Assembly: GCA_963575745.1 (NCBI GenBank)
Contig: CAUYUJ010000002.1
Span: 1,674,001 to 1,738,000, forward strand
Length of the DNA stretch: 64,000 nt
Source: Prorocentrum cordatum
Taxonomy: Eukaryota
Direction: 5' to 3'
The first letter of the stretch is position 1, and every line of letters starts with the position of its first letter. A program made the translations under genes and the position numbers. Below the pieces are notes generated by a model. It was not told the origin of the DNA, searched no databases, and was given only the letters and a program-made list of their open reading frames with translations. This document shows, in pieces, positions 5,546 through 44,414 of the stretch.

Positions 5546-5554
5546 TGGCCACAC

Positions 5555-11812: not shown

Positions 11813-11814
11813 GT

Positions 11815-24830: not shown

Positions 24831-25114
24831 ACTTTAAACGGAGAAGGTTAAAGGCGAGGTATAAATCGAGCATGTACCGCTGCCGTGCCTGGCTCAAGCC
24901 GGGCCCGGCCAATATATGACTGTGCCTCACTGAGGCGCACAACTTGCATCAGAGATCGGAAAATACCTTTTCCATTGACGATGCCCATCCTATCCTTTAC
25001 TCCAGATCCCATGCTTCGTCTTGCTCTCTTGCTCATGCGATATGAGCCAAAGCCTGGGATATGGCAACGCTTAAAGCGTAACACATACCTAAGCTTACCA
25101 GCTTGTTTTCGACT
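24831..25114 (+). repeat. Element B 5' LTR
   Basis: ACTTTAAACGG...GTTTTCGACT matches 40952-41235 at 282/284. TATAAA is at 24860-24865. Confidence 0.95.
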
Positions 25115-28100
25115 TGGTAGCGGAGCTGGCTACACTCTCGTGTGGCTGGCTCTCGCTCTGATTCCTGTAATCCACGGCACAACTTGGTGGACTACTACTA
25201 CGGTGGAATACCATGTTGCGCCGGCTCTGCGAGGAGCGGAGCCAGTCCGCGATCGAGCTAGCGGGGCAACCCGCGAACTCGAGACGCTCTCTCCTACTTC
25301 ACTGCGCTACTTCACTCCCGACTTCCACCAGATGCCAATCGGCAACTCGATCGAGAACGTGGTCACCCTGCGGGGCTACCCGCAGCGGGGCCACCTGCAT
25401 CCCGTGCCGGTCAGGCGCCTCACGGCTACCACGCCAGAGCCTGACAAACCACAGCCCAAACCAATCACCGAAGCCGAAATGCACATGCATTGGATTAAGA
25501 TAACTATCTTCGGCATTCTGTGGGTAATAATGGGATGTGCTGTGGGATACATGCGGCAGGGGATGGACGACACGCGTACTACTGGCCCTTCATGGGACCC
25601 TGCCGGTACTACGCCTTTCCGCGAATACGTTCGCGAAGTACATGCATGGTTAAACGTAACGAGTGGCAATATGACACCACCACAACAAGCTGCAGCACTA
25701 CAACGAGGCCTTCAAGGTCTGGCTCGTCGTATCGCCATGCAGGTCCCCTCCCAGATCATCAATTATGGTGTAACTGTCAATGGACAGCCAACGGATGCAG
25801 TAACATATATACTGTACTTACTGAGCACCAAATTTGAAAATCTGGAAGATGAGCGCCAGCTCAACTCTGGCACTGCCCTTATCGACTTCCGCGTCGAAAG
25901 GGGCGAGCGAATCGACTCAGTATTAGCTCGATTCGAGATGGCCCGTGACGAGGCTAACTCTGTTGGTTTTGTCATCCCCAACTTTCAGATCCTAACGCTG
26001 ATTCTCTTCAGAGCGTTAGGCGTTGGCGCGTCACGAGCCCAACACCTGCTTGAGCCCTTCAATCATCAGATGCCCCGAACACAAGCAGACTATGACAGGC
26101 TGCTGACCAGGATGAGGAACTACGGACATGTTGCCGAGCGCTCTCCTGGCAACATAGCGGGTATCTTCACAGGGCACCACTCACATGCAGGTGTCTACGC
26201 CACGACTGCGGGGTCACCCGCTGGTCCTGGCGAGCCAAATCCCTGGGCTGACCCAGCCGATATGCCCAACGAGGCCACTGCCCTCTTAGGGCAGACCGGC
26301 CAGGCATCGGCAGAGGCAGCTGAGGCGAACGCCTGGTCGAACTACTCGCCAGGCGCCGCCTACACTGCAAGCCCGCCCTCGGGCACAACCCTCTGGGGCC
26401 AAGCGGAGTCATCCGCTCAAGGGTCTCAGCCACCCTCACCGTTTGAATCTGGCACTGACACAGATACCTCATCTGACGATGAGCACAATGGCATAGTCTC
26501 TGCTGGTAATGACTACCCAGCGGATGACACTCACCTCTCTGAACAACAAAGAGCGGAAGCCGCTTTTATGGCTTATCGCAAATCAAAACGCCGTTGGAGG
26601 CGCTTTATGAAGAAACCAGTCAGAAAGGTGAGACGTGCAGTACGCCGACATTTCAAACGATTTGGAAAGGGTCGTGGCAAAGGGGGTCGCAGACGCCGCA
26701 TGCATGGTAGGGGTATTACTGCTTTCCTCACGTCCTTAACTGATATGGCTTTTGAAGAAGTTCTTATCGGAGGCAAAGGTCGGGGTCACAGGCGGACCTC
26801 CGGTAAGGGAAAAGGGCGGAGGGGCAACCCTAGGGACGCTTCTGGCAATACTATGAAGTGTCATACATGCGGTAGCACAGAGCATTTGCGCGATCAATGC
26901 CCGAAGGGGAAAGGAAAGGGATCCGTACATGTGGCTCAAAATTCTTTTATGGATGACATAGATTACATTGACTACGAGTTTTACGTCAATCCAGACGCGG
27001 CCCCCGCCGCGGGCTCCTCCACGTATTACGTGATGGCCCGCTACGCTGAAGCAACCGTAGCCCTGGAAGACTACGCAGAGACCCTCTTCGACGAGTTCCA
27101 CGGCTGGGACGAGGTCGACGAGGTCGCGTACAATGCTTGGTTCGGTCTTCCAGCGGGGCCACCCGCCGGCGACGAGGTCTCCGAAGCAGAGACCGTCCCG
27201 GCAACAGAGGAAGAACTCACCGCCGTGCTGGCACCGCAAGTAATTGGCACGCCGTTGCTGCCAAATCCTTCGCGGGCTGGTTCGGAGGCGGGAGACGCCG
27301 ATGACGAAATGCGGGGCCATCCCGCGTATTCCGACTCCGAAGAAGCCGAAGAAGATTATAAGGACATGCTCCAAGAGGAGGTCTCAGAAGCAATCCGACT
27401 CCTGAGTGCGCCAGCACATCAGCACATAACCATGAACGAACTGCTGTCACACCCAGGAGTTGCACGTCTACGTCCATACTTGGATTCGAACATGTCAGCA
27501 TCTCAGATGTTGACAGCACTCCAAGCTCTAGCGGGGTCACCCGCCGAAGAGACGCTAGACGCAACAGCGGGGCCACCCGCTTGGTCTATGGATGTATTCA
27601 TGCAAGGTTGTGATCAAATGGACATTAACGACCTCACGATGGAGCAGTTAAACGACATCGGGTATTTCAGAAGCCCGTATCAAAACGTGTTCATGGTCCA
27701 GGACAGCTCAGAGGACTCGGAGGACATGCGTTACGCCAAGAGGGACAGGCGACCGTCGCCTCCCCGAGACTCAGAGCATGACGACCAAAGGCCAATGACA
27801 CGTGGTAGTGCGTCAGCGGGGCCAGCCCGCGGAAGGAGCCGTTCAGCTCCTAGACGCCCTACGCATGATGAATCGGGCTATCCATACAGTACTGAGCACT
27901 CCGTTGGAGTATCTGCTCAACAAGTGCCGGATTGGTACATCAGATGGTACCCCGGCTACTCGATGGATACTCTTCGCCACTGGTATTCTAAGGAGTATTG
28001 CACTAAAAGGGACGAAACTGGCGCGATAATACGTACCAAGGGTGGCAAGACCAAGACGCCAGAGGCTTGGGACAAAAGGGCTAAGAAGCAGGAGATCATC

Positions 28101-31100
28101 AACGATCGCAAGACATACAGGAAACAAGTATGTCAGTGCGAGCCCTTCAAAGGTCACATGCGCAGGTGTCCGATGGACCGCCCCTCCAGGAGCCCTCATC
28201 ACGGTGAGACCCCGTGGAATTGGTCTCATGGAGATGACGCTGGCAACGTCCATGATCCTAATAAGGAGGTCCCTGGAGGAGGAAAGCGCATCACCGAAGC
28301 CGATCGTGTCCCTATGACCGAAGAGGTGGCCAACATCGTCAGGGAAAATTGGGTACAGCTTCCCAATGACCATCGCCTCAAAGAATGGAACCGCCGATTT
28401 CATAAAGAGGCGGGGTCACCCGCAGGATCCAGTAAAGAGGCGGGGTCACCCGCAGGATCCAGCAAAGAAGCGGGGTCACCCGCAGACGCGGCGCCCGCCG
28501 CTGGGTCCGCGGAAGACGATTGGATAGCTGTTGCATCTGCTGCTGAGTCCGCCGCCGGCACTGACCACACCGAACTGAATGAAGAATGGGCGGCGGAAGA
28601 CGGCTCAGAGAATCCATTCCCTGACGGAAGCGCTTGCTGGTACTACAGCTCTTCGGCGCAGAAGTGGTTCTGCACGAGGGTAATCTACCGCCATGAGAAT
28701 GGCAAGTACAAGCTGGCCATAAAAGGTACTGCCGACATCGACCAGATGAGGCAGGTCATCCATGATCATGGCCAGCCAGAAGGCCCTCCTAGAGACCCTC
28801 CTAGTCCACAACCGGGCAAGGGCAGCAGACCACCTCCAAGACCTAAAGCCGACTCCTCGTCTTCACCGACTCCTGCGAAAAGGCACCCGTCCAAGAGCCC
28901 CGAAGGCACACATGGGCGGGCGAAGGCCAGAGGGATCGCCAAGACGGACGACCCTGAGCCGGCAGATCCTCCCGGTCTGTCCGTGACAGAGAGGAAGAAG
29001 GCTTTTGCTGGACCATCGACCCCGATGCCACCGGCGACCCAAGGCGATGTCAAGGACGAAGTTCGTGACAAGCCTCAGGCAGCTTTCAGGGGTGACTGGA
29101 CTCCAACTCTGCATCAGCCGCGCCTTGCACCACGACCAGGTTCGGCACGAATGAAAGCGCAGCCGAAGCCCGAAGCTGGGATGAGGTCGGTACGGGCGGA
29201 AGCGGCCGCCAAGGCTAAGGAGGACAAGGGCTCTGCGGGGCCACCCGCTAAAGCGGCGCCAGCCGCAACAGCGGGGACACCCGCAGAAGGCACTCTCTCA
29301 AGAGAAGAACGCTTCAGAGTCCTCAAAGAGTTTGGCGACCAACAGAAACTAACCGATGATGCAGCTGCTGACGAAGGTCACCCGAACCCTGGCGCGGAGT
29401 CATCCGCAGGAGCTGCCTCGTCGGCCGCAGGTTCTGCAGGGCCACCCATTAAAGCGGCGCCAGCTGCATTAGCGGGGCCACCCGTTAAAGCGCCGCCGGC
29501 TGCATTAGCGGGGCCACCCGCACAAGGACAGCCAATAATGTCTGTTCTCAGGAACATCCCTTTGGGAGCCATCGAATACTGGCAAGGCATTGAAGGCAAA
29601 GGCCCGAAGCGCACCATAAACCCACGAGTCACTCCAGACGATACGGACCGATACGAAGTCATTAATTGTCCGGTTCGTCGTAACTTCGAGTGCCGCAACG
29701 ACTGGGAACGTGAACAACAAACCGTGGGAAATATGTTGCGAGACAGGCCGCCACTACGCGTTGCGCAGCATAAAGCAGAGCTCCTGAAGGTCATGGAGAG
29801 GTTCGGCATGGATCCGACTTTGCCGCGCGAAGGGCAGATGACCAAGGTGTCAATGTGGTTTTCTACAGCCCTACGCCACAGTCCATATTGGAAGGACGGA
29901 TTCAGCCGACACTTCGAAAAGATCAGCACTTACGATCCATACGATGGCTGGGTGGTCGTTGACGATCTGCTGACAAACTGGACTGAAAATGATCAGTGGA
30001 AAGGCTATCGTGAAATGCACGAGGTGCTGATCAAGGGCAGGCCCCACACGTCATACGTGTATTGGGTGCTGCTAAACTGCTGTGAGATGATTGACCATCA
30101 CGGCATGCAGAAGGGCAGGCTCCAGATGAAGTGCGTTGATGACAGCATGCTGCTGCCTCCCAGGTTTCGACCGAAGGCACGCAGGCCACAGTACTTCATC
30201 AGAGCCACGAACGGCCACAGCAGTCCAGGCATCCACTGTCCCGAGTCGCTGTGCAAGCCGATCACAACATGGATGAAAGAACCAGACGACCCAGTATATT
30301 TCATCCACGGGACACAGTGGGAGTATGTCAAGGACATCCTTGCTAATGGCCTTTCATGCCTCGCACAGGACAACCCTAAGAGGAAGGGGGGGCGCCAATT
30401 TGTGCACGGCTGCCCCTACCTCCCGGGCGACCCGAGGATTCAATCGGGCATCCGTCCTGACTCGGAGGTGCTCATATTCTGCAGCATCAACAAGATGCTG
30501 TCCAGTGGCTTCTCTCTATGGAGATCAGCAAATGACATAGTCATGACACGGGGCCACGACGGACGTATACCGCCCGATCATATCCTCCAGATTGTGAGCA
30601 TTGCGAAATATCGGGTCGGCGAAGCCTGGAGCAATCCGCTGGCTTATGACAAGTCGCGGAGGCGGGGCCAACCCGCGGACAGGATTCGCACCGATGACTA
30701 CCTGCCACTTAAAATGTGTGACAGAACTCTGGGTGTAATGGAAGATCACGCCATGTACCTAAAGGGCTGGACTAAGACGGACGGTCGCCCATTCAATTTG
30801 ATCATGACCGAGCAAGATGTTGCTCCACGACCGTACGACACACAGACAGTCCTCATGATGAATGCCCAGGAGGACGAGGTCATGCCTGAAGCGGGGCCAC
30901 CCGCAGGTGCGGGGACACCCGCGGTAGACACCTCGGACGGTTCATGGCAACAAGTGGTCACACCAGTAGCAACGGTAGCATCTCCTTTGAGGCCGGACCA
31001 GCAGTCATGGGTCCAGGCCCTCAACAGCCATTTGACATCAGCCGACGTCTCTGGACTGACCGATCAGCTATATCGTGCTGACCCGTGGGCGGTGCATACA

Positions 31101-34100
31101 GGTATCCAAGACGCACAGCAGAGGAACCTGCGCACTCCTGCGGGGCCACCAGGCGTCCTAGGACCACAACCACAACGCCCTCCGCAGCAGGCTGGAGGTG
31201 CGAGGTTTGTCCCTATGGGCGGTTCAGATGGTGGCTCGCCGTTTCGGACTCCGCCGTCTGAAACGAGCGAGAACAGCCTGTGGCAACGACTCCAGGCGAT
31301 TCGCGGAAATCCGGCGCTCGCAGCAGCACTCCAGGCGACCACTCCCTTTGGCACTCCGAGGGGTAGTGAAGGAGGAGTGGCTGCGGGGACACCCGCCGAG
31401 CGAACGCCTGCGGAGTCATCCGCACATGCGGGGCCACCCGCTGACGGACAGCAAGGTTCAGACTACGAACGTCGGGCAGCCAACTTGAGAGCACAGGCTA
31501 CCTTTCTGCAGCAACAAGCTGATAGAGTGCCCAGCCTGTTGCGGAACCGCAACATAGATGTTACGAATCATGGCGACTTTCGGCCTCTCTGGAGCTGGAC
31601 TTCTGAAGATGCTCCAAATGCTGATCCCACGAATCCATATCGACAGGTGTTTATTCCAGGAATAGCATCACACCCAATATATGGATGGGACAATCATGGA
31701 CCAGCAGAGGCACAGGCCATGGACGCGCCGATGTACCCGGAGTACTACGCGCAGATGAATAACACTCCTATGATTGCGGGGCCACCTGCGAACGAATACA
31801 CTCGGAATCTTGCCAATGAGATGTTTCGTTTGCAGTTTACACGAGCGGTCGATGCGCAGTCTATGCCGCACTACGCCTACATGCCCACGCCGACGGACCC
31901 CGAGACCGTAGTTCAGCCAGCTGGTCTCGCGGTGCCAGCCGCTATGGGCAGCATGCCAGACTACATCCGCGACGTGCACAACACGCAGCAAGCGATACTG
32001 GCATCTAGGCAGCAGGCTCGGGACAACGCCAGGCTGCGCCAACAGCGCGCGATCCAGAGAAGGATCGAGCGTGAAAACCAAGCGGGGACACCCGCAGACG
32101 CGGGGCCACCCGCTGAACGAACAGATAGACTGCCGCCACCGACGCCATATCGGGAGGGCGAAACCACTTTCGAGCGTCAGGCTCGGACTCGCCCCGACGT
32201 GCCTGCTCCAGTCATTTCAGACTACAACTTCACACAGTGCCCAATCTGTATGGACTCCTACGAGATGGGCACCACAGTGTGGAGACTGGCGTGCGGGCAC
32301 TTCTTCCACGATATATGCTGGGATCGTGTTGCACAGCAGCACGTCCGCAATCAGCGACCAGGTGCGCCGAACGAGGCCCCCTGCGCTGTATGTCGTGGGC
32401 CGGGCATAATTACAGCACATTTCCCGTATGCTGGACAGCGCGACGCTGAGTCGGAACAAGCGCGCCAGCAGGAAAGGTACGTGGTAGATGCCCGGGAACT
32501 GCGTCGGCTGCGGGAAGCAGTGGAGGCACTAGAGGCTCGAGCCGCACACTCGGCGGAGCCATCCGCACGTGCCCCAGCTGCACAGACACACCCCTGGCCA
32601 GCGCCAGAGCAAGGCATCCAGATGCCAATCCTGCCTACGCTTCGAGCGCAGGAGCCCCCAGCAGCGGGGCCACCCGCCGAAGCGGCTCCCGCCGCCAAAG
32701 CGGGGCCACCCGCAAATGGACCTCCGAATCCAGGATTCCTGAGGGCAATGGAGGCCAATATCAGGCGGAGTGGCAGGAGCGGAGGCGGGACGCGCAGGCC
32801 GACTGGATCATCCAGGACCTCACGTGTGGCGAGCCCGGTCAGCGCTAGGAGCCGGGCAAGCGCTGAAAGCGCGGAGGCAGCCCAGTTCCACACCACATTC
32901 ATGATTGATACAAAAGGGCTGACCTATGCACGTGACGACACGGACACGCTGCCGCCAGGAGGTGAATGGACGTCCACACTCTCTGCGAATTATTGGGTTC
33001 TTGAACAGGAACCAATTACCGTAGAGGAGCGCCGCCAATATGAGCAGATGTGGTGCACCGAGTTAACCATGAGCCAATGGGTGCTTGAGCAGCGCCTGTT
33101 GAAAGGCACACTCGGTTCACAGATTACGTACCACACTGATGACCATGGTACGATGGCTCTGGCAGCGCGGAACGGGACGTTCTTCCCTGACGAAGACGGA
33201 CTGCCGTGCATCTCGTTCATGCTAGACATTGGCTCCAACGTGAACATCATCGGAGCCAATACGGCGCGAACCTTCCAGGAGGCTATGGCCAGGTACAATC
33301 ACAGACCTGCCATATGCACCCTGAGCAAGACCCTCTACATCAACGGTGTCGGTGAGGGTGCTGCGATATGTCGGAAAATGGGCAACTTCAAGATCGGGGT
33401 GCAATACGCCAATGAGGCAAGCCCCCGTATCGAGGAGTATGCCTCCAACATCGCAGAAGGCTCGGGTGCCAACCTCCCGGCCATCTGGGGCCTTGGTGCC
33501 ATGGAAGCACGTGACACGATCATCGTGCTGAAGCCAGGCTACCAGAAGGTTATCTTCCCCAGCGGAGATTATACTCTGAAGCTGGGGAGGGGCGCCAAGG
33601 TCCTGAGGGCGAAGAAAACTCCCTCAGGACATCTAGCCATTCCCTGCGGTTTGTATGACGGGGCTAAAAGCCAGACGGTCACGAACACCTTCACAATCCG
33701 CAGCAGTCGAGATGGCTACACCGAGACGGAGAACGAAGAGGACCCCGTCAGTGCGGGGCCACCCGCCGGTGTAGGTGCGGGGCCACCCGCCGGAGTAAGT
33801 GCGGGGCCACCCGCTGAGACCACAGCGGGGCAACCCGCGACGGGACAGTCCATGACCGTCACGACTGATACGTACATTGTCGAGCCGTATCTCGACAAGC
33901 AGCTCCTGGAAGACACGACCCGTTTGATCGTGGACAGGACGCTGAACAGCTGGTGGGAGGGCCAACAGTGTCCCGAAGGGACCTGGCCACATATGAAGGA
34001 TGCCCTGAAGTCCAAGATATTTTGGGCAGTCCAGGAGGCGGTGAATAAATGGACGCCTGAGAACCAAGCGGGGCCACCCGCGACACCGCCACCACCACCA

Positions 34101-34247
34101 AGCTACACGGGCGGAGGTTCGTCGGATTCTGCGGGGCCAACCCGCGTGGAGATCGTGAGCGTAGCCGCACCAGCGACTCCTGCGGAGCCATCCGCTAACA
34201 GCATGCCCCCGAGTCAGACGGCAACGTGGTCACACGACCGCCGCTGA
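24981..34247 (+). CDS. Element B ORF1 (~3088 aa): hydrophobic N-terminal segments, Gag, CCHC knuckle, SH3/Tudor-like module, Tpt1/KptA domain, RING-H2, aspartic protease
   Basis: First ATG at 24981, positionally conserved in element C. Gag PSWDP..PFREYVREVHAW (~25590); CHTCGSTEHLRDQC (26859-26900); Tpt1 motifs 29838-30600; RING 32238-32396; protease FMLDIGSNVNIIG (~33225). Confidence 0.92.
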   Translation: MPILSFTPDPMLRLALLLMRYEPKPGIWQRLKRNTYLSLPACFRLGSGAGYTLVWLALALIPVIHGTTWWTTTTVEYHVAPALRGAEPVRDRASGATRELETLSPTSLRYFTPDFHQMPIGNSIENVVTLRGYPQRGHLHPVPVRRLTATTPEPDKPQPKPITEAEMHMHWIKITIFGILWVIMGCAVGYMRQGMDDTRTTGPSWDPAGTTPFREYVREVHAWLNVTSGNMTPPQQAAALQRGLQGLARRIAMQVPSQIINYGVTVNGQPTDAVTYILYLLSTKFENLEDERQLNSGTALIDFRVERGERIDSVLARFEMARDEANSVGFVIPNFQILTLILFRALGVGASRAQHLLEPFNHQMPRTQADYDRLLTRMRNYGHVAERSPGNIAGIFTGHHSHAGVYATTAGSPAGPGEPNPWADPADMPNEATALLGQTGQASAEAAEANAWSNYSPGAAYTASPPSGTTLWGQAESSAQGSQPPSPFESGTDTDTSSDDEHNGIVSAGNDYPADDTHLSEQQRAEAAFMAYRKSKRRWRRFMKKPVRKVRRAVRRHFKRFGKGRGKGGRRRRMHGRGITAFLTSLTDMAFEEVLIGGKGRGHRRTSGKGKGRRGNPRDASGNTMKCHTCGSTEHLRDQCPKGKGKGSVHVAQNSFMDDIDYIDYEFYVNPDAAPAAGSSTYYVMARYAEATVALEDYAETLFDEFHGWDEVDEVAYNAWFGLPAGPPAGDEVSEAETVPATEEELTAVLAPQVIGTPLLPNPSRAGSEAGDADDEMRGHPAYSDSEEAEEDYKDMLQEEVSEAIRLLSAPAHQHITMNELLSHPGVARLRPYLDSNMSASQMLTALQALAGSPAEETLDATAGPPAWSMDVFMQGCDQMDINDLTMEQLNDIGYFRSPYQNVFMVQDSSEDSEDMRYAKRDRRPSPPRDSEHDDQRPMTRGSASAGPARGRSRSAPRRPTHDESGYPYSTEHSVGVSAQQVPDWYIRWYPGYSMDTLRHWYSKEYCTKRDETGAIIRTKGGKTKTPEAWDKRAKKQEIINDRKTYRKQVCQCEPFKGHMRRCPMDRPSRSPHHGETPWNWSHGDDAGNVHDPNKEVPGGGKRITEADRVPMTEEVANIVRENWVQLPNDHRLKEWNRRFHKEAGSPAGSSKEAGSPAGSSKEAGSPADAAPAAGSAEDDWIAVASAAESAAGTDHTELNEEWAAEDGSENPFPDGSACWYYSSSAQKWFCTRVIYRHENGKYKLAIKGTADIDQMRQVIHDHGQPEGPPRDPPSPQPGKGSRPPPRPKADSSSSPTPAKRHPSKSPEGTHGRAKARGIAKTDDPEPADPPGLSVTERKKAFAGPSTPMPPATQGDVKDEVRDKPQAAFRGDWTPTLHQPRLAPRPGSARMKAQPKPEAGMRSVRAEAAAKAKEDKGSAGPPAKAAPAATAGTPAEGTLSREERFRVLKEFGDQQKLTDDAAADEGHPNPGAESSAGAASSAAGSAGPPIKAAPAALAGPPVKAPPAALAGPPAQGQPIMSVLRNIPLGAIEYWQGIEGKGPKRTINPRVTPDDTDRYEVINCPVRRNFECRNDWEREQQTVGNMLRDRPPLRVAQHKAELLKVMERFGMDPTLPREGQMTKVSMWFSTALRHSPYWKDGFSRHFEKISTYDPYDGWVVVDDLLTNWTENDQWKGYREMHEVLIKGRPHTSYVYWVLLNCCEMIDHHGMQKGRLQMKCVDDSMLLPPRFRPKARRPQYFIRATNGHSSPGIHCPESLCKPITTWMKEPDDPVYFIHGTQWEYVKDILANGLSCLAQDNPKRKGGRQFVHGCPYLPGDPRIQSGIRPDSEVLIFCSINKMLSSGFSLWRSANDIVMTRGHDGRIPPDHILQIVSIAKYRVGEAWSNPLAYDKSRRRGQPADRIRTDDYLPLKMCDRTLGVMEDHAMYLKGWTKTDGRPFNLIMTEQDVAPRPYDTQTVLMMNAQEDEVMPEAGPPAGAGTPAVDTSDGSWQQVVTPVATVASPLRPDQQSWVQALNSHLTSADVSGLTDQLYRADPWAVHTGIQDAQQRNLRTPAGPPGVLGPQPQRPPQQAGGARFVPMGGSDGGSPFRTPPSETSENSLWQRLQAIRGNPALAAALQATTPFGTPRGSEGGVAAGTPAERTPAESSAHAGPPADGQQGSDYERRAANLRAQATFLQQQADRVPSLLRNRNIDVTNHGDFRPLWSWTSEDAPNADPTNPYRQVFIPGIASHPIYGWDNHGPAEAQAMDAPMYPEYYAQMNNTPMIAGPPANEYTRNLANEMFRLQFTRAVDAQSMPHYAYMPTPTDPETVVQPAGLAVPAAMGSMPDYIRDVHNTQQAILASRQQARDNARLRQQRAIQRRIERENQAGTPADAGPPAERTDRLPPPTPYREGETTFERQARTRPDVPAPVISDYNFTQCPICMDSYEMGTTVWRLACGHFFHDICWDRVAQQHVRNQRPGAPNEAPCAVCRGPGIITAHFPYAGQRDAESEQARQQERYVVDARELRRLREAVEALEARAAHSAEPSARAPAAQTHPWPAPEQGIQMPILPTLRAQEPPAAGPPAEAAPAAKAGPPANGPPNPGFLRAMEANIRRSGRSGGGTRRPTGSSRTSRVASPVSARSRASAESAEAAQFHTTFMIDTKGLTYARDDTDTLPPGGEWTSTLSANYWVLEQEPITVEERRQYEQMWCTELTMSQWVLEQRLLKGTLGSQITYHTDDHGTMALAARNGTFFPDEDGLPCISFMLDIGSNVNIIGANTARTFQEAMARYNHRPAICTLSKTLYINGVGEGAAICRKMGNFKIGVQYANEASPRIEEYASNIAEGSGANLPAIWGLGAMEARDTIIVLKPGYQKVIFPSGDYTLKLGRGAKVLRAKKTPSGHLAIPCGLYDGAKSQTVTNTFTIRSSRDGYTETENEEDPVSAGPPAGVGAGPPAGVSAGPPAETTAGQPATGQSMTVTTDTYIVEPYLDKQLLEDTTRLIVDRTLNSWWEGQQCPEGTWPHMKDALKSKIFWAVQEAVNKWTPENQAGPPATPPPPPSYTGGGSSDSAGPTRVEIVSVAAPATPAEPSANSMPPSQTATWSHDRR
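25115..25129 (+). promoter_or_regulatory. Element B primer-binding site, tRNA-iMet-like
   Basis: TGGTAGCGGAGCTGG abuts the LTR end. Confidence 0.85.
29838..30600 (+). other. tpt1/kptA-like: Tpt1/KptA (PTS_2-RNA) NAD+-dependent RNA 2'-phosphotransferase domain within ORF1
   Basis: Ordered family motifs: STALRH, DGWVVVDDLL, KGRL, IRATNGHS, IHGT, ILANGL, GRQFVH, SGIR...EVLIF, LWRSANDIVMT, GRIPP. Confidence 0.9.
32238..32396 (+). other. RING-H2 (C3H2C3) finger within ORF1
   Basis: CPIC-x14-CGHFFHDIC-x21-CAVC, with W directly after the sixth ligand. Confidence 0.88.
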
Positions 34248-37200
34248 CGGGGGCAGGCGGGCGCGCCGGCGGCGCTCGCTTGCGAAGAGAAGCCGAATAC
34301 CGGCCTCCTCGCGACATACGTTGGCCGCGCTGAGGCCCGAGAAGAAAAATATCATTCAAAATGTCTCGTCATCGAAGATATTCGCACAGCTTGCGCTGAA
34401 CTCCGAACCCGTGGATATATATGCGACCGGATTACCCATAATGAGGTAATGACTTCAACTGGAACACAGTATTTGGGAAATTTGTTGGCAGGAGACTACA
34501 ATATGTTGTGGGTGGCCACACCCTCTGATTGGTACGTTCGTACTCCAGGAAAGAGGGCGGGACCACATTATCAACGTATACAAAATCTCCTGATCAAAGC
34601 GCGTGCTCTGAGAATGCAGATAGTTATCCTGGGGCCACCCGGGTATTTCTGGAAACAGGGTCCGATCAAAGATGTTATCGAAGATTTGAAGCTAAGCATT
34701 ATACGAATCAGACTCTGTCATTTCGGTATCAAGTTTGACCGATCCAGTAAATATCCCAGTGGTTCTTATATACAAGTTGCTACATCTTGTCCTCATATAC
34801 CGATAAACTTATGGAAATGTACTTGTGGCTCACACAAGGAGCATGATTTGGATTGGTATGGCCAAGATCAGCAACGTGCCGAGTTTCGGTATAAAACTTT
34901 GGCTATTATTATTGCACGCTTCCTTGATCAACTCGATAAAGCCAACATGATCAGGAATGAGCGGAGTGCGGTACACCTCAGTGTGTGTACACGCGTTGAC
35001 AAAAAGGTCAGACACTACGTCCAATGTCCACAAAAGGGCCCTCAATGGGACCATGTGGTTCGTAGGGTCACGACCGACCTGGACACGAACAAGATCGTTC
35101 AAGATATCAGAATCCAGGATCAGCCAACTGGGTACAATTATGTAGCTCCATTACCTGATGGGGTTACAAACATCAGTACTCGGCTATACTGGGAGCCTCC
35201 GGCTCCAGTTCTTCATGGCAATGGTGAGTCGCGAAGGCCACGCCCAAAGCGTGTGACGATCGTCGACGACGATCGATCTCCTCCCCCTTCGATTGAGCGT
35301 TGCCAAACGCGACCCACCAACAACCTTCCTGAAATTCCGCCATTTCCTGACTTTACAGCGGATTCCTCCGCAGCGGATCTCTCCGCGGAAACTGCGTTGC
35401 CCACTGATGCCAGGATAAAACAGAAAGAAAAGCAGAAAGCTGACAAAGAAGCCGGCATCAAACCGAAGAAAGTCCCGAAGAAAGTGGAAGACGGTAACGA
35501 CGACTGTGGAGAGGACCTCAAAGGGCTTGACTGCTCCACATATTTCAACGACGTTCCTCTTGACGACTCGGACTCGGACAGCGAATCAGAGGACATCTTC
35601 ATGATGTTACCGGCGGGGCAACCCGCTGACTCACATGCTGATGTCTTCTCGATAGTCCAGTCGTTATGCTACGGCAGAAACAATCAAGTGGACATGCTTG
35701 AATTATGTGGGGGCAAGGGTGGTATATCCATATTAGCCTTCAAGAGGGGACTCTCGTCAGGCGGGAACCTTGACAAGATATCTATGGTTGACCTTGGAAA
35801 CTCGGAAGTACAAAGAGCAGTCCTCCACTACCTCAAGACTTGCTTTGTCAAGATCACGATTCTGCAGCCAAGCTGCAGAACTACTGGACTTCCTTCCTAT
35901 TTCAATGCACAGGTCAATCATGATACGTGGCTTAAACACCACAAAGAGGACCTGCCTCACATCACGTTCTGTGGAACAGTCGCTCTATTACAAGACGACC
36001 TAAGACGTTTCTTTCTCAGGGAACAACCAATGGGCACGTGGGTGGATGAGATCCAGCCATGGAAGGAACTGGCACAACGCAAGGTCACTTGCCAAACGAT
36101 TATTGATCAGTGCACGACTGGTCTCAAAGATTCATTTGGACAATACATCCGCAAGCCAACACAGATGATGGCAAACAAAGAAGAGTTGTTGGCACCTTTC
36201 AGAGGCAAGCGTTGTCCAGGTAATCATGTGCACGCCAATGCTTGTAATAAAGAACTAGCAAGGGCGGCACAGTATACCTACAGAATGCAGTCACTGATCG
36301 TTGATGCGGTGCAAATCGCCAAAGACCTGTTTGCTTACGGTCGCGATCCATTCGCGAATCGTGAACGCAGCTATGCGTTCGTAACAAACAGTGCTGGCTA
36401 CGACTTGGACGACCCAACAATCCGGAGACACCCAAACGGAGAAATCTGGCGACCACCACCTGGCGGTCTTGGGTGCCCTGGCTGTGTGGACAACAACTAC
36501 AAGCAATCACCAAAGCACAGCAGGGATCCGAAGATGTGTCGGTGGTATGATGTTGAACCGTATTACTGGGACTGTCCAAGCTGTAAGAAGGAATATCAGA
36601 AGAGCAATCCTCACCACACCAAGATATCTGGCCAATGCAGATTCGCCGAAAAATGGAAGCTGCCAGATAACTTTGGCCAGCCGCGCCCGGCGGGGCAAGC
36701 CGCTCCTGCGGCGCCAGCCGCGGAAGCGGCTCCAGCCGCAGAAGCGGCGCCAGCCGCAAAAGCGGCGCCGGCCGCGAGAGCGCGCATACGCGCGCCTAGG
36801 CCGCCACGGCCTGGTGAGGGCGATCCAACCGCAGGCGCCAGCAGCCATGACATCACCAGAGCCGACGGGGCTAATGGTGGCAACAGTGGCGCTGGCAGCT
36901 CTGACGATCACCGTAGACTGCCACAAGTTGCAGCAAGGCGCGGACGCATGGAGGGAGGAGATCCTCCACCACCGCCGCAGCCTCAAGCAGAGCCGAGGCC
37001 AAGGCCAAGGCTCCCTGATTGGACTCGCTTCGACGTTCAGCTCAGCCTCCAAAACCTGCGCAGCTTCGACCCAGCTGTAGTGCAGCGAGAACTCCGCAAA
37101 CTCCACCTGAGATGGTTTCATGCCAAGGAGCCAAAAATGCGGATGATTCTAACCAAGGTTGGTCTGGGTGAAACCCGTTTGAGTCTGATCAAAGGCATTT

Positions 37201-40200
37201 GTGACTCGTGTAGAGAATGTCGAGCCTGGGACAAACCAGGCAACACGGTGATGCCTTCTGTGTCACTGCCAGGACGTTTCAACGAGGAAGTCGAATGTGA
37301 TCTTTTCTTTTACAAACAGGAACATATTGTTTTTCACATCATCGACCGTTGTATTCGCTGGGCAGCTGGCACAGAGATTCCTGATAAAGCCATGCATACT
37401 GTTCTCGATGCCTATCATACGACTTGGATGCAACATGGCCCTGCTAAAATCTTATACTCCGATGGGGAAGGAGCACTGAATAATGATACAGCAAAGGCCA
37501 TCCTTAAGGCTAAGGGAACAGAGCTTCGTATTCGAGCGCGTGGCCAACACGCTACAACTATCGAAGCTAGGAACGGCATCCTGCGACACCTCTTACACGT
37601 GATGGGAGAAGAATTGAATAGATTAAATATTCCTCTCAATTTCACTCGTCTCTTACATGAAGCCTTGTTTGCCAGCAACGCATTTACCTTCTACAATGAA
37701 GTGTCTCCGTACAATGCGCTGTATGGCAGACAACCAGCTATGCTTCCCGATTTCCCTGTCTTGGATCATGATCAGTCCGCTGAATCATCAGATCACTCAA
37801 GGGAGGAAACAATCAGGAGGGTTAGTCTGGAGGCAATCACGCAGGCCACTGCGGTTGCCAAGACGAACAGGGCTCTCCGTACGAAGACTACTGCTACGGG
37901 TGAATTTCACTACAAAGAGGGAGATCTCGTGGACTATCATCGCCCGACCACCACGAAAGACGACTGGGGTGGATGGAGTGGTCCATACCCGGTCATCCGC
38001 AACGAACCTGACCGAGGCCAGGTCATCGTGAAGGTCGGCAGTCGCGAAGTGCGAGTACAGTATCCTGACACACGACACACACTGTACATCGAAGCACTTA
38101 TGGTCCGCGAGATAGGATCGGACAATACGGCCCTTCGGACAGTATTGGCCTTTATTGCCGGTCTGCCAGCGGGGAAACCCGCCATGACTTTCGGATATCT
38201 ACCAGCGAAACAGGGTCGGCTGCAGATGACTGCTGCGAGCCGACTTTCGCCTAAGGTGCACTTGGCTCTTCAGTACCTCATACGCAACTACTTTCGTATT
38301 GAAAACGTTGTTGCTGTACGACTTGCCAAGAGCCTGACGAAGTTGCCTGCTGCACCCTATGCAGACAGCTGTACACTAGTGCACTATGATAATGATGTGA
38401 CCCCTGGTTTTCATTACTATGAAGCTGATGGCACTGCCTTGAACATCTATGACATCACAGGATCTACACACTCACGCATCATCCAGTGTCTTAAATCCAG
38501 GAAGCCGTCTGCTGGATTTGACCAAGACCTCACTAAGTTTGAGGAACTCGCTGATGGTCCACCACCAAGCGAATCACCTCCAGCAGCTGCTCCTGAGGAG
38601 CCTCCTACGGATAACGATGGTCGGCTCCCGACCATCATAGAGGAAACAGAAGAAGATCTGGATGCTTTTGTCTTGAAGTCGTGGTATGCTGAACTGATGG
38701 ATGACAGAACACTCCTTGAAGCTGACACAGAGGAAGTCATGCATACAGTTCCCACATACATGACAGACACACAGTGTGTGTTAGTCTCTACGACCTGTGA
38801 AGATGTGCAAGGCCACTTGCCGGAGCGGGGTCACCCGCCAGGATACGACATGGACACTTCTTACTACGTTCCTTTATGCTCCACGGATCCGGATAGCAAA
38901 TATGATCTGGACTCCGATGAGCACGGGAAGTACATCGAGCTCTGCTTCACTGCAGACATGTCCAAAGTCGTCCTGTCCGAGCAGCAACACCGATTGTTGG
39001 ATGACAGCAGCGTCACAACTATGCGAGTATACGTTAGCGCTGCCTCCAAACGTGCCGTGGTCGTCAAGGAAGACGATCTACTCACGAAGGCCGACATCCA
39101 AGCAAATCCGGTCAAAGTTTCCAAAGCCCTCTACACAGAATTGAAGACTTGGCTTGACAACAAATGCTTCCAGATGACTGACTTAAGCAAGGCGTCTAAC
39201 ATCATGACGTCACGCTACGTATACAAATGGAAGTTTGTCAAGAACGAAAAGGGCGAAATGGAAAGGACGATCAGGTTACGCTTGGTACTCCGTGGCTTCA
39301 TGGACCTCGAAGCCTTTGATGTCGAAACCTTCTCTGGCACGGCAAGGAGGTCAAGCCAGAGACTGCTCGCAAGTTCTGCTGCATGCAACAAAGCTTGGAT
39401 CATCGCTTCCCTGGACATCAACATGGCTTTCTTGAAGGGACTGACCTATGGCGAGCTCGCCGCGGCAACGGGCGAGAAAGAGCGTGTGGTGTGCTTCACA
39501 CTACCACCTGGGTCAGCAGCTGTCCTTCGCACACTGCCAGGCTTTGAGTCATATGACGAATCAAAGCATTGTCTCCGGTGTCTGAAACCGGGGACGGGCA
39601 CGAAGGATGCTCCCAGGGCATTCTCGCTGAAGCTCAGGTCCATCACTAGGAGCTTTGGGCTACAGCCTACTTCATACGACGAAGAGTTCGAGATGAGCCC
39701 AAACCTCTTGACAGCCAAGCACGTTGATGACATCAATATGACTGGGAAGGAAGAGGCTATTGACAAGTATGTCAAGTGTGTTGAAGATACGTTTGGGAAG
39801 TGCAAACTGAACAAGCACACATACACAAACTGTGCCGTTCGGTACAACAAGACCGATGATGGGAGCGTCACTCTCGATCAGGACGAATACATCAAACAGC
39901 TTCGTCCTATCACACATCCAGAACTCACAGGAGCTGATCCTGAGAGCAAAGCGACAAAGACGATTTCTGATATGTTCGTCAGTCTTCGTGGCGCTCTAGC
40001 CTATGCGTTGATCACGCAGGTATGGCTGATGGTCTATGTTGTCTCACTACAACGTATCCAGGAACCGACAAACATCCAGGTACGACGACTAAACGCGGTT
40101 ACCAGAAAGCTACAGGCAGGTCCGAAGAAGATCGTGTATCAAGCTATGACCCCAACAGGAGAAGTCGACCTGCATAGCGATTCTGGCTATCGTCGTCTCA

Positions 40201-40847
40201 ACGGAGATGAAGACGACGAAGTCAAAGGCTATGGTATCCGCGGGGCTAACCTGCTGAGGCGTGGCCACACGCAAGCGGGGAAACCCGTCGTGCACCTGGT
40301 GGACGCATACTGCAAGTCTCATCGACTGCAGGTGCGTTCGAGCTACTCTGCGGAAACACTGGCAGCAGCCCACAACTTGGAAGACTGCTACCCGACCATT
40401 GTAACGCTCCACGAGCTACACTCGGGACCATTGACCCCCACACAGTTAAAGAACATATTGGAAATGGGTGGTCTATGTATCAAAGTCACTCTGACTATTG
40501 ATGCCGAGTCTGTCTTCAAGTCTTTGTCTAGCAAAGATCTGAAGAAGCCCACAGAATGTACTCTGCTTGGGCACATCAGCTGGATCCGCCAGATGATGGA
40601 ACGCGGAATCGTGGAAAGCGTCCAATGGTGTGACACGCGGGATATGACTGCCGATGGTCATACCAAAGGTAGTATTGACCGCGCGTTGCTCCTACAAGTA
40701 ATGGCCGGCCAGCAATCCTTCAAGCACGAGCTGAAGAAACATACGCCGTATAGGGCGGGCAGGTCGTCTCAGGACGGCCCTGCCTCCCGAGCCAGCGGGG
40801 AAACCCGCGGGCAGGTGCGCTTTAGTAGCGAGGAAACTCGCCGGTAG
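34248..40847 (+). CDS. Element B ORF2/pol: degenerate DNMT-like + DNMT-like domain, CCHC fingers, integrase, RT, RNase H
   Basis: Open and in frame directly after the ORF1 TGA (first ATG 34449). DNMT ELCGGKGG/QPSC/EQP/RKPT (35688-36310); integrase HLRWFH..CREC, CDLF, SDGE, IEARNG; RT RLVLRGF, DINMAFLKG, KDAP, HVDD; RNase H HSDSG, SSYSAETLA, IDAESV, MTADGHTK. Confidence 0.93.
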   Translation, partial: RGQAGAPAALACEEKPNTGLLATYVGRAEAREEKYHSKCLVIEDIRTACAELRTRGYICDRITHNEVMTSTGTQYLGNLLAGDYNMLWVATPSDWYVRTPGKRAGPHYQRIQNLLIKARALRMQIVILGPPGYFWKQGPIKDVIEDLKLSIIRIRLCHFGIKFDRSSKYPSGSYIQVATSCPHIPINLWKCTCGSHKEHDLDWYGQDQQRAEFRYKTLAIIIARFLDQLDKANMIRNERSAVHLSVCTRVDKKVRHYVQCPQKGPQWDHVVRRVTTDLDTNKIVQDIRIQDQPTGYNYVAPLPDGVTNISTRLYWEPPAPVLHGNGESRRPRPKRVTIVDDDRSPPPSIERCQTRPTNNLPEIPPFPDFTADSSAADLSAETALPTDARIKQKEKQKADKEAGIKPKKVPKKVEDGNDDCGEDLKGLDCSTYFNDVPLDDSDSDSESEDIFMMLPAGQPADSHADVFSIVQSLCYGRNNQVDMLELCGGKGGISILAFKRGLSSGGNLDKISMVDLGNSEVQRAVLHYLKTCFVKITILQPSCRTTGLPSYFNAQVNHDTWLKHHKEDLPHITFCGTVALLQDDLRRFFLREQPMGTWVDEIQPWKELAQRKVTCQTIIDQCTTGLKDSFGQYIRKPTQMMANKEELLAPFRGKRCPGNHVHANACNKELARAAQYTYRMQSLIVDAVQIAKDLFAYGRDPFANRERSYAFVTNSAGYDLDDPTIRRHPNGEIWRPPPGGLGCPGCVDNNYKQSPKHSRDPKMCRWYDVEPYYWDCPSCKKEYQKSNPHHTKISGQCRFAEKWKLPDNFGQPRPAGQAAPAAPAAEAAPAAEAAPAAKAAPAARARIRAPRPPRPGEGDPTAGASSHDITRADGANGGNSGAGSSDDHRRLPQVAARRGRMEGGDPPPPPQPQAEPRPRPRLPDWTRFDVQLSLQNLRSFDPAVVQRELRKLHLRWFHAKEPKMRMILTKVGLGETRLSLIKGICDSCRECRAWDKPGNTVMPSVSLPGRFNEEVECDLFFYKQEHIVFHIIDRCIRWAAGTEIPDKAMHTVLDAYHTTWMQHGPAKILYSDGEGALNNDTAKAILKAKGTELRIRARGQHATTIEARNGILRHLLHVMGEELNRLNIPLNFTRLLHEALFASNAFTFYNEVSPYNALYGRQPAMLPDFPVLDHDQSAESSDHSREETIRRVSLEAITQATAVAKTNRALRTKTTATGEFHYKEGDLVDYHRPTTTKDDWGGWSGPYPVIRNEPDRGQVIVKVGSREVRVQYPDTRHTLYIEALMVREIGSDNTALRTVLAFIAGLPAGKPAMTFGYLPAKQGRLQMTAASRLSPKVHLALQYLIRNYFRIENVVAVRLAKSLTKLPAAPYADSCTLVHYDNDVTPGFHYYEADGTALNIYDITGSTHSRIIQCLKSRKPSAGFDQDLTKFEELADGPPPSESPPAAAPEEPPTDNDGRLPTIIEETEEDLDAFVLKSWYAELMDDRTLLEADTEEVMHTVPTYMTDTQCVLVSTTCEDVQGHLPERGHPPGYDMDTSYYVPLCSTDPDSKYDLDSDEHGKYIELCFTADMSKVVLSEQQHRLLDDSSVTTMRVYVSAASKRAVVVKEDDLLTKADIQANPVKVSKALYTELKTWLDNKCFQMTDLSKASNIMTSRYVYKWKFVKNEKGEMERTIRLRLVLRGFMDLEAFDVETFSGTARRSSQRLLASSAACNKAWIIASLDINMAFLKGLTYGELAAATGEKERVVCFTLPPGSAAVLRTLPGFESYDESKHCLRCLKPGTGTKDAPRAFSLKLRSITRSFGLQPTSYDEEFEMSPNLLTAKHVDDINMTGKEEAIDKYVKCVEDTFGKCKLNKHTYTNCAVRYNKTDDGSVTLDQDEYIKQLRPITHPELTGADPESKATKTISDMFVSLRGALAYALITQVWLMVYVVSLQRIQEPTNIQVRRLNAVTRKLQAGPKKIVYQAMTPTGEVDLHSDSGYRRLNGDEDDEVKGYGIRGANLLRRGHTQAGKPVVHLVDAYCKSHRLQVRSSYSAETLAAAHNLEDCYPTIVTLHELHSGPLTPTQLKNILEMGGLCIKVTLTIDAESVFKSLSSKDLKKPTECTLLGHISWIRQMMERGIVESVQWCDTRDMTADGHTKGSIDRALLLQVMAGQQSFKHELKKHTPYRAGRSSQDGPASRASGETRGQVRFSSEETRR

Positions 40848-40951
40848 CGAGGCTACTCGCGCGCCCTTTCCTTGTAGGCAGCCGCTGCTGCTTAGCACTG
40901 TTTTTCCGCATAATGTAAAAGTGCGGTACCTGCTCGTCTCCTCCCCCTCCG

Positions 40952-41235
40952 ACTTTAAACGGAGAAGGTTAAAGGCGAGGTATAAATCGAGCATGTACCG
41001 CTGCCGTGCCTGGCTCAAGCCGGGCCCGGCCAATATATGACTGTGCCTCACTGAGGCGCACGACTTGCATCAGAGATCGGAAAATACCTTTTCCATTGAC
41101 GATGCCCATCCTATCCTTTACTCCAGATCCCATGCTTCGTCTTGCACTCTTGCTCATGCGATATGAGCCAAAGCCTGGGATATGGCAACGCTTAAAGCGT
41201 AACACATACCTAAGCTTACCAGCTTGTTTTCGACT
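40952..41235 (+). repeat. Element B 3' LTR
   Basis: Matches the 5' LTR and is followed by TSD GGCCA. Confidence 0.95.
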
Positions 41236-44050
41236 GGCCAACGTGGCCATCTTGGAGGCCATCTTGAGCCGTCTTAGCGGATTTTTCCGGAATTGGGGAT
41301 ACTCCAGGTGGCCGGCGGGTTGGAAAAATAACCAAGACCAAAGGCGAAAGGTTCCAGCGCGCCAGGCACCCATGCGATGAATCAACAGGGGGCGGCGGAT
41401 CGAAAACGCCTACGGCGAATCACCGCCGCCCTCTGCCTTTGTGGAAGCGCCTATGTGTCCGACAGCTGGGCTAGAGCTTGGCCGACCTATCGGAACATGT
41501 GTTCCCCGAGTCGGTTTGGAAAGGTTTCGGGGAACGCGGGGGGAGGAAGGGGAGGAGGAGGACAAGGAGGAAAAAGGAGAAGGGGGAGGATGCCTCTTCG
41601 GAGCCTCTTGAGGCACTCTTGGGCTCGATTGGACCATCTTGGGACCGTCTTGGAGACCATGTTGGGGCTATCTTGGGCTCTCTTGAGGCCTCTTAAGGGC
41701 CTTTCGGAACCCTTTTGGAGCTTCTCGGGGGCCTCTTTGGCCGTCTTCGGGCTTTCCTGTCCCGTCTGACGCCGTCGAAGTCCGTCTTGGGGGCCTCTCT
41801 GAAACGACTTGGGGCTCTTTTGGGGCGCTTCGGGTCCGTCTTGGAGGCCATCTTGGGCGTCTGGGAGGCCTCTTGGGCCGTCTTGGGGGCCTCTTGGGGC
41901 CGTCTTGGGGGCGTCTGGGGCCGTCATGGGGCCGTCTTGGAGGCCTCTTGGGCGATCGTGGGGCGATCTTGGGAGCCTGTTGGGCCGTCTTGGGCTGTCG
42001 GAAAGTTGAAAAGGCGCAAATGCCAAAACCCTTCAAAAACCTAAGGAAAATAATTGATTTTGGCCTCGTCGGGCCTTCCTGGAGGACCTCTCTTGGAGGC
42101 CTCTTGCGGGCCTCTTGGGCCGTGTTAGACCATATTGAGACCATCTTGGGCCGTCTTGGATGTATCTTGGGGCCATCTTAGCCGTCTTGGAGGCCATCTT
42201 GGCTGTCTTGGAGGCATCTTGGAGGCCATCTTGGCCGTCTTGGGACCATCTTGGGCCATCTTGGGGCGGAACAGGCATTGACTTGTGCAGTTTCCGCGTG
42301 GCCGGCGGGACGGGCGGGAGCCCCAGGGGGAGTTCTTTTGGAAAAAGAACCAACACCAAAACCGAGAGGGTTCAGCACGCCAGGCGCCCCTGCGATGAAT
42401 CGACAGGGGGCGGCGGATCGAAGACGCCTACGGCGAATCACCGCCGCCCCTTGCCTTTGTGGAAGCGCCTATGTGGCCGAACGTTGAGGCCAGAACTGCC
42501 AAGCCATCGGACCAATGTTCCCCGAATCGGTTTGGAAAGCCTTCGGGGAACACGTGGGCATCTTGAAGGTCATCTTGGCCGTCTTGCAGGCCTCTTGGGC
42601 AAGCTTTCGGCGATCTTTGGGGGCTCTTGGGCCGTCTCGTGCCGTCGGAAGGCGGAAAAGAAGCAAATGTCAAAATACGTCAGAAACCTCAGGAAAATCA
42701 ATGTTTTTGACTTCTTCTGGCCTTCCTGGAGGCCCTCTTGGGGGCCTCTTGGGCCGTCTTGGGCCAGCTTCGAGCCAACTTCGGCCATCTTGGTGGGTTC
42801 CTGGCCCGTCTGACGCCGTCGGAAGCCGTTTGGGGGACCTCTATGGGCCGACTTGGGGCCCTCTTGGAATGCTCCAGGGCCGTCTTGGAGGCCATCTTGG
42901 GCGTCAGGCCATCTTGGGCGTGTTGGAGGCCTCTTGGGCCGTCTTGGGGCCCTCTTGGGGCCATCTTGGAGGCCACTTGGGCCGTCATGGGGCCCTCTTG
43001 GGGGCCTCTTGGGCGATCTTGGGGGCCTCTTGGGCCGTCTTGAGCCGTCGGAAAGCCGAAAATGCGCAAATGCCCAAATCCTTCAAACACCTAAAGGAAA
43101 ATCAAGTATTTTGGCCTCTTCGGGCCCTCCTGGAGGACCTCTTCGAGGCCTCTTGGGCCGTCTGGGAGGCCTCTGGGGGGCCTCTTGGGCCATCTTGGGC
43201 AGTCTTGGACTCTCTTGGGCCGTCTTGGAGGCCGTCTTGGACCATCTTGGGTGTACTTGGAGGCCATCTTGGGCCATCTTCGCGATTTGTTGAGGATTTC
43301 CCGAGCGAAACGGCCGTTTTTGGAGCCGTTTTGGGCAGGACATTGGGGAATTTAGCGCCTTCTGGGTGGCCGGCGGGACGGGCCGAAGCCCCAGGGGGAG
43401 TTCTTTTGGAAAAAGAACCAAAACCAAAACCGAGAGGGTCCAGCACGCCGGGCACGCCTTTGCTAAAGCAACAGGGGGCGGCGGATCCTGGTGTCCGTCG
43501 GCCCATCCCGCCACCACGCCTGGGTTGTGGGTATGAGGCCTCTTGTATATGTGTTGGGGTGTCGTGGGGAACCTCTCGGGGGCTTCTTGGAGGCGGTTTG
43601 GGCGCCTCTTGGGGGTCTCTAGAGGCCTCGTGGGGTATCTGTTGGGCCTCTTGGAAGCATCTTGGGCGCGTCTTGGGCGCCTCTTGGGGCCTCTTGGAGC
43701 CTCTTGGCGACATCTAGGGGCCTCCTGGGGGCTTCTCGGGCCACAAATGTTGAATGTTCGGTTCGTGGTCTCCTGCTTTGGCCCCTCTTGTGGCCGTCTT
43801 GGGGCCCTCTTGGGCCGTCTTGAGCGTTTATTGGGCCATCTTGGAGCTATCCTGGGCCGCCTTGGGGTCCTCTTTGAAAACTCTTGGGCTGTCTTGGGGC
43901 AGTCTTGGCAGCTTCTTGAGCCGTCTTGGTGCGTCGGAAAGCCGAAAATACGAGAAGATCCAAATACAAAAAGCGTCGTCAAATCCGGCCTCTTGGAGCG
44001 CTCTTGGGGCCTTCTTGGGCCGTCTTGGAACCATCTTCGGGCGCCTTGGA
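41236..44050 (+). repeat. TCTTGG satellite (right flank of element B) with hairpin modules
   Basis: Continuation of the satellite interrupted by element B. Confidence 0.9.
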
Positions 44051-44414
44051 GCACTATGGGCCTCGGCAGTGCGAATACGGACTAATTTGCAAAGGTGTAT
44101 GGCTTCGGAGACGCGAGTATTGTGTAATGTACGGTGGTTTGTTGCCTCGGGGGCCTCGGGGGCGCGAATATCCTGTATGTTTACATGTCGCGCGCCCCCC
44201 CGGGAATTCAGAGCACGCGATACGAGGTGGTAAATTGCTGGTTTGGGGTTCCCCCCCTCGCGCGGACTTCAACAATTTACAATAGGAAGCAGAAAGCAGA
44301 ACTGTAACATTGGAGACTTGGAACTGCAACTGGCGCAGGGAGCAGCAACCTTGTCCTGCATCCTGGTTGCCTCCCAAGGGGGCCAGCGGATGATGTGAAA
44401 AGTGTACGAGGTAG

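Follow-up and report, generated by a model that had tools for sequence, protein, structure and literature searches.

The question raised by this locus is how the pol proteins of a retrotransposon are produced when the reading frame that precedes them ends in a stop codon. In the 64-kb window (the whole stretch of DNA that was analysed), an open reading frame of 3131 codons closes with TGA and, as the first-pass annotation had noted, the same frame then stays open for 2199 codons up to 40847; that annotation proposed that pol is made by programmed readthrough, directed by UGA-CGG and a stem-loop. Comparison with other copies strongly supports this proposal, since stop and stem are kept across families: the TGA appears to be a fixed boundary between gag-protease and pol, very probably read through into pol by a minority of ribosomes, with the CGG triplet and the stem, the latter likely part of a pseudoknot, predicted to help.

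The stop lies within an intact 16.4-kb copy of an abundant Ty1/copia-order LTR element (24831–41235, forward strand), flanked on either side by the target-site duplication GGCCA (Table 1). TG...CA termini and a polypurine tract are usual features of Ty1/copia LTR elements; in this one the LTR ends are ACT...ACT, and the tract ahead of the 3′ LTR (40930–40951), where a polypurine tract is expected, is pyrimidine-rich. Despite these termini, the element was filed as copia-order because of its domain order (gag, protease, integrase, reverse transcriptase and RNase H) and its RVT_2-type reverse transcriptase; its integrase and RNase H gave no Pfam match and were both read from motifs by eye. The first frame encodes, in order, a gag-like region with a zinc knuckle, a Tpt1/KptA domain, a RING finger, the protease and a 190-codon tail, and pol contains two predicted methyltransferase-like domains, integrase, reverse transcriptase and RNase H in copia order. 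ORF1 is giant in this element, the upstream frames reaching only about 950–990 codons in several distant families.

The placement of the junction after the protease, regarded as unusual in the first-pass annotation, is borne out, the whole predicted protease domain lying upstream of the TGA. Its catalytic-type Asp (codon at 33225, in LDIGS) is invariant in 62 aligned sequences, a C-terminal SGHL motif is found at 33624, and the structure model (pLDDT 90) has the FIV and XMRV proteases as its best fold matches (E 5.6e-4). Sequence searches against PDB and Pfam named neither the protease nor the methyltransferase-like domain; fold comparison did. For the second pol domain, the top fold matches are DNMT1 and Dnmt2 (E 5e-4 to 9e-4, TM 0.33–0.39), and for the first (34350–34970) a predicted DNMT fold (score 0.88) is to be taken as a lead only; a profile comparison between these two domains gave no similarity. 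That two predicted methyltransferase-like domains open pol (34350–34970 and 35628–36380) contrasts with the statement in PMC5890265 that Symbiodinium Copia elements lack DNMT domains.

Table 1. Positions of the features of the element within the 64-kb window
Feature	Positions	Strand	Remark
5′ LTR	24831..25114	+	284 nt; two differences from 3′ LTR
ORF1, stop to stop	24852..34247	+	3131 codons; first ATG 24981; ends TGA
Primer-binding-site-like stretch	25115..25132, end approximate	+	begins TGG; sequence and established knowledge
Tpt1/KptA RNA 2′-phosphotransferase domain	29859..30554	+	between gag and protease; E 2e-15
RING finger	32235..32396	+	between gag and protease in ORF1
Retropepsin-fold aspartic protease	33180..33720	+	predicted fold; upstream of TGA
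In-frame TGA closing ORF1	34245..34247	+	TGA in 670 of 672 copies
3′ context CGG GG	34248..34252	+	type II readthrough triplet and G-rich spacer (PMC3159437)
ORF2 (pol)	34248..40847	+	2199 codons open, in frame of ORF1; RVT_2 at aa 1638–1897
Stem 1, 5′ arm	34253..34264	+	12 bp with 3′ arm, two G:U pairs
Loop word CGGC, predicted 5′ strand of stem 2	34267..34270	+	complement GCCG
Stem 1, 3′ arm	34272..34283	+	pairs with 34253..34264
GCCG, predicted 3′ strand of stem 2	34292..34295	+	past 8-nt purine-rich linker
Conserved coding block upstream of first in-frame ATG (34449)	34350..34445	+	compared with L063
Second pol domain, predicted C5-methyltransferase-like fold	35628..36380	+	fold search
3′ LTR	40952..41235	+	284 nt; two differences from 5′ LTR

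At the junction itself, the stop is followed by CGG and by the 12-bp stem with two G:U pairs that the first-pass annotation had described, and this stem is the minimum free energy structure of 34245–34290 (−24.8 kcal/mol; z −2.2, a stability matched in 5 of 200 shuffles). Its z value is only −0.6 when longer windows are folded, and the stem alone, in GC-rich DNA, is modestly unusual. The combination of UGA-CGG and a stem matches the known viral readthrough context as presented in PMC3159437; the spacer measures 5 nt from the stop to the full stem and 9 nt to the core retained by RNAalifold, against a range of 7–12 nt in that source. The earlier count of 67 codons before the next ATG is correct (the first in-frame ATG, at 34449, is codon 68), whereas their likeness to the start of a DNMT-like fold stands only in part: about the last 33 (34350–34445) are conserved protein, and about the first 34 form a variable linker. 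In comparison with L063, a metagenome contig of a related family (B), the 32 codons of the conserved block comprise 15 identical, 13 synonymous and 4 non-synonymous ones, and this excess of synonymous changes indicates that coding selection acts upstream of the first ATG.

Two other structures touch the junction. One is an alternative hairpin (34204–34255, z −3.8) that encloses the stop together with the opening bases of stem 1; it was rejected as a signal, since L063 lacks it, about 180 copies have a shortened form and others carry mutations in it. The reading of stem 1 as one of the mini-hairpins that code for AGxPA was likewise rejected, those being 5-bp GCGGG/CCCGC units with other pairing. 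These mini-hairpins (GCGGGG-N3-CCCGC), 29 of which occur within the element (26208–38183) against 2 in the remaining 64-kb window, cluster in linkers, and similar units are present in families B–D.

Copies of the same family (A) were searched for in a genome of 4.1 Gb. TGA occupies the stop position in 670 of the 672 places with the exact 36 nt downstream of it, and two sense codons, GGA and CGA, were found with a related pattern; because nearly all copies share the TGA, it is no nonsense mutation, the reading for which the first-pass annotation had expected a sense codon in sister copies. In 30 young copies, chosen by downstream protein similarity, none of the 39 positions of the element from the stop to the end of the stem varies, against 10, 11 and 16 of 39 in neighbouring windows of the same length. 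Pol is open for 2199 codons in many copies, and a fused frame over the pol start was found in none of 150 protein-scored copies, where the longest open frame has 2203 codons; searches for fused relatives without the stop, themselves weak, returned none, and viral contigs gave no match. Another upstream-context pattern occurs in 183 copies, and the 30 of these that were retrieved lack 33 nt immediately ahead of the stop, with the frame preserved; in this short subfamily, the 33-nt deletion takes out the middle of the alternative hairpin.

Related families extend these observations. Family B, represented by L063, is 74% identical in amino acids and has the same stop and context with a different ORF1 tail; in its stem a C-G pair is changed to U-A, which alters two amino acids. 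With L063 as query, the older, decayed families C and D were reached, and families A–D, mutually 58–68% identical in nucleotides, retain stop and stem. In 38 old copies (40 loci minus one that did not align and one of family A), the stop position reads TGA in 21, CGA in 7, TGG in 4 and otherwise in 6; its first base is C in 10 of the 38, about twice the T-to-C background in TG (14–15%). Among the changes in decayed copies, T to C and A to G (12–13%) are commoner than C to T and G to A (6–10%).

Covariation of the stem was assessed in an alignment of 32 rows (the window, L063 and 30 old copies, the 8 with indels in the element being left out). Paired cells amount to 89% of the stem, and one pair is G-U, A-U or C-G depending on the family. 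Stem cells with a double change number 15 against 6.6 in shuffles, a value that 0 of 500 shuffles reach; counted by pairs, double changes occur at 3, which is matched by 186 of 500 shuffles. The outer pair 18-30 is broken in 19 of the 32 rows, and of the stem pairs RNAalifold retains the inner five only. Between families the stem does covary, with few independent events within A–D.

Two public relatives of the protease, used as queries, led to distant families in the genome; one set of 20 loci was obtained, 16 of which were examined, the 4 judged to belong to family A being left out. In family E, whose protease is 29% identical, all 6 copies have UGA-CUA-GGG, and the stem core is shifted one base outward, hence its letters are read in another frame; families F (2 loci) and G (1 decayed locus) have UGA and stems with further compensatory changes, and the remaining 7 of the 16 loci are decayed C- or D-type copies. 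CGG follows the UGA in families A–D, F and the more distant J, and CUAG in family E. TGA predominates in each family of the A–G clade, and the tree unites A, D, E, F and G in a single supported clade. The conservation of the TGA and the covariation of the stem in other copies, both suggested as checks in the first-pass annotation, are found, six related families keeping UGA and stem with compensatory changes. Despite the other changes, all seven families A–G retain CAGG/CUUG, including the G:U pair, at the base of the stem, which hints at a possible recognition beyond pairing. Of a 3-kb stretch, one metatranscriptome contig matches 34245–34283 only, its unmatched ends agreeing with the flanks of family D.

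The sequences on either side of the stop differ in length between families and keep the frame. The first conserved pol motif follows the stop at a distance of 120 nt in A, 234 nt in B, 204 nt as the mode in C (7 of 16) and 195 and 228 nt as modes in D (8 and 6 of 22), all five being multiples of three. From the protease to the stop, families A, C and D are in frame; the raw distances in decayed C and D copies fall at 2 mod 3 in 16 of 29, and the aligned core columns of C and D, 567 and 624, are in frame, the private one-base losses of D being scattered.

The hairpin may also be more than a simple stem-loop. In families A–D, the loop word CGGC and the downstream GCCG are paired in 93% of cells, without covariation, and the third codon positions of both words are kept, against a four-family identity at fourfold sites of about 20%. 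Complements of 6–8 bp between loop and downstream sequence, with unrelated letters in each family, occur in E, F, G and the distant families I and M. Measured against windows of the same locus, with search windows set after seeing the data, the pairing has p values of 0.02 (E), 0.001 (F), 0.001 (G), 0.013 (I) and 0.001 (M), and of 0.09 (A), 0.04 (B), 0.28 (C), 0.13 (D) and 0.19 (the distant family L); in family M it needs a 40-nt window, p being 0.81 at 22 nt, and family L lacks such a complement. These different pairing letters per family point to an H-type pseudoknot, which is likely across the clade and of which the hairpin is probably the first stem, a possibility missed in the first-pass annotation. 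In this element the predicted pseudoknot is uncertain: the stem 2 of family A has 4 bp, is invariant and is the weakest, and GCCG is also claimed by a competing local hairpin.

With the protease as query, 470 relatives were obtained, and of the 150 that were listed, 106 carry the C-terminal motif; all but 4 of the latter, 102 public relatives, end within 150 residues of the motif (median 53), some of them possibly at contig ends, and none of the 150 listed matches the four pol proteins. In 43 of the 60 places examined (the top 20 and 40 spread by hand over the 150), one in-frame stop is found about 30–85 codons past the protease end, with the frame continuing, in families H (11), I (12), J (4), K (5), L (1), M (8), N1 (1) and N2 (1); the other 17 comprise 4 with CGA at such a site, 5 without a stop (the 4 loci of family O, which is a single open reading frame, and one N2 sister) and 8 decayed or indistinct ones. 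N1 is thus represented by one copy, and N2 by one copy with the stop and one without it. The contexts are UGA-GGG, UGA-CGG, UGA-UCG, UGA-UGG, UGA-CAA and, in family M, UAG-GGA, again located after the protease. Of 15 family representatives, 13 have a downstream frame that matches pol proteins; in 9 the 66 nt past the stop rank among the top 3% of local windows for stability, but in only 5 of the 15 do they reach z ≤ −2. Families K and N1 have no unusual fold downstream of the stop. As judged from these sequences, the stop after the protease is a clade-wide layout in copia families, not seen in the first-pass annotation, and the contexts switch between families among known readthrough types.

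Among other explanations, the one that survives best, although unlikely, is alternative splicing of the Ogre type, in which an intron in the ORF1 tail would end at CAG|G (34254–34257, phase 0) and remove the stop from a fraction of the transcripts. By the usual branch-point and acceptor consensus, CUGAC would serve as branch point, and the stem would hide the acceptor. An AG ends 9 nt past the stop in families A, B, C, D, F and G, but the first AG lies at +4/+10 in E, +17 in H, +23 in I, +11 in J, +6 in K, +12 in L and +4 in M, so that there is no fixed acceptor site or phase. According to PMC6317226, GAG-PROT lies in ORF1 in Ogre (Ty3/gypsy) and other plant groups, and in Ogre it is split from the rest by a spacer of about 274 bp that is removed as an intron; the break after the protease is shared with them, but here it consists of one codon in a continuous frame, with no non-coding spacer and no donor conserved upstream. 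Joints between other sequence and the acceptor were found in 0 genomic copies, with a pattern that misses exon ends with G at −4, and in none of the contigs of two runs, which drop rare forms and may be DNA; a contig from an RNA library crosses the junction unspliced, weak evidence as contigs may be DNA. Splicing also leaves unexplained the CGG, CUAG and GGA contexts and the single in-frame stop per family, which readthrough would account for together with the frame-keeping linkers and the structure.

Less probable still is the expression of pol from a separate mRNA, through spliced-leader trans-splicing or an internal promoter, or by internal initiation or re-initiation past the stop. A minor promoter is reported within the Tca2 junction (PMC2194720), and family C has an ATG directly after the stem, but this ATG is not conserved (GAA, ATA, ATG and CCA in A–D), three out-of-frame ATGs lie before the first in-frame one at 34449, conserved codons are found upstream of the latter, and the linker keeps the frame with the stop at five lengths; a separate or spliced pol mRNA is disfavoured. 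The chance is smaller again that the UGA is recoded otherwise, by A-to-I editing or selenocysteine insertion. The stop of this subfamily does sit in the stable hairpin at 34204–34255 (z −3.8), where editing might take place, but that hairpin is lost or damaged in other copies, as described above, and the sole RNA contig over the stop is listed without a change there; for selenocysteine, no Rfam match, SECIS included, was obtained in 24800–41300 at E ≤ 1, and the UAG of family M speaks against such recoding. Finally, that a non-autonomous master copy acquired its TGA from CGA by nonsense mutation has a negligible probability. CGA was found in one young copy and one copy of family I, in 7 of the 38 old copies and in 3 of the 14 copies of family H, but TGA predominates throughout the A–G clade, the three H copies sit on separate tips of the tree, a T decays here most often to C, pol is open for its full length in many copies, and the 670 TGA copies together with the stops in family E and the distant families refute this reading.

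Under stop-codon readthrough, the explanation preferred here, most ribosomes would stop at the TGA and release Gag-cargo-protease, and a few per cent, by analogy with viruses, would insert an amino acid by means of a near-cognate tRNA. The product would be a polyprotein, about 5,300 residues long, in which the two methyltransferase-like domains, integrase, reverse transcriptase and RNase H are added, and the protease would then cut the pol parts out of it. With the stem beginning 5 nt from the stop, its lowest three or four pairs would be unwound inside the ribosome, leaving a purine-rich spacer of 8–9 nt before the G-C core, as in Moloney murine leukaemia virus (MoMLV). The Gag:Pol ratio would be set in this way, and the protease made at the level of Gag. 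Avian sarcoma-leukosis virus likewise makes its protease at the Gag level and has its recoding site after it, although by −1 frameshifting instead of readthrough.

Type II readthrough, as described in PMC3159437 for alphaviruses and Virgaviridae, relies on UGA-CUA or UGA-CGG, 3′ stems and spacers of 7–12 nt. The present junctions resemble it in UGA-CGG (CUAG in family E), in a stem of 9–12 bp and in a polymerase downstream in frame, but differ in the loop (7–15 nt, against about 100–150 nt in the viruses), in the shorter spacer (5–6 nt), in the predicted second stem and in the host, a nuclear retrotransposon. The gag-pol junction of MoMLV combines UAG, a purine-rich spacer of 8 nt and a pseudoknot of the H type (PMC13517186, PMC2194720); an in-frame stop before pol, a G-rich spacer, a predicted pseudoknot and, in family M, UAG-GGA are common to both, although the MoMLV stop precedes the bulk of the protease, whereas here the whole protease and its tail are upstream and the stop is mostly UGA. 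This element accordingly has UGA-CGG after the protease and not the MoMLV-type UAG-GGR with the stop before it. Also close is Tca2, a Ty1/copia element of Candida albicans with a gag-UGA-pol arrangement, a purine-rich spacer and a potential pseudoknot (PMC2194720), although its stop is described there as the gag stop and it is one yeast element against a clade of families here. In the same source, the Tca2 junction alone, which looks similar, gave no readthrough in Saccharomyces cerevisiae, a point against readthrough here.

We think it fairly probable that a copia radiation in a dinoflagellate-type genome sets Gag:Pol by readthrough after the protease, employing all known context classes (UGA-CGG, UGA-CUAG, UAG-GGA and possibly UGA-CAA), mostly with pseudoknots of unrelated sequence. 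If so, these elements would provide a naturally occurring library of readthrough signals, and stop codons would be read through in a programmed way in a lineage for which no report was found, the literature search for readthrough in dinoflagellate retrotransposons having missed most subscription papers and supplements. Readthrough before pol is proven in few retroelements, and in PMC2194720 the copia case, Tca2, is left mechanistically unresolved; at least ten families with independent-looking signals at one position would allow the contexts and structures that drive readthrough, and their interchangeability, to be tested, and would open a handle on translation termination in dinoflagellates. 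The layout would also account for the splitting of these elements behind the protease by gene callers, and an in-frame stop at this place would be no mark of a dead copy.

Some minor observations concern the surroundings of the element. A second copia element (11736–20150) has a single frame of 2804 codons with zinc knuckle, integrase and reverse transcriptase, without a stop after its protease-like motif and with methyltransferase-like motifs recognized by eye. Both LTRs of the element under study contain a 16-nt stretch (24883–24898 and 41004–41019), which we take to resemble a worn dinoflagellate spliced leader. The element is embedded in a host satellite of 10–11-nt units (950–10500, 22000–24830 and 41600–44600), and the contig of family B ends in a repeat similar to this satellite.
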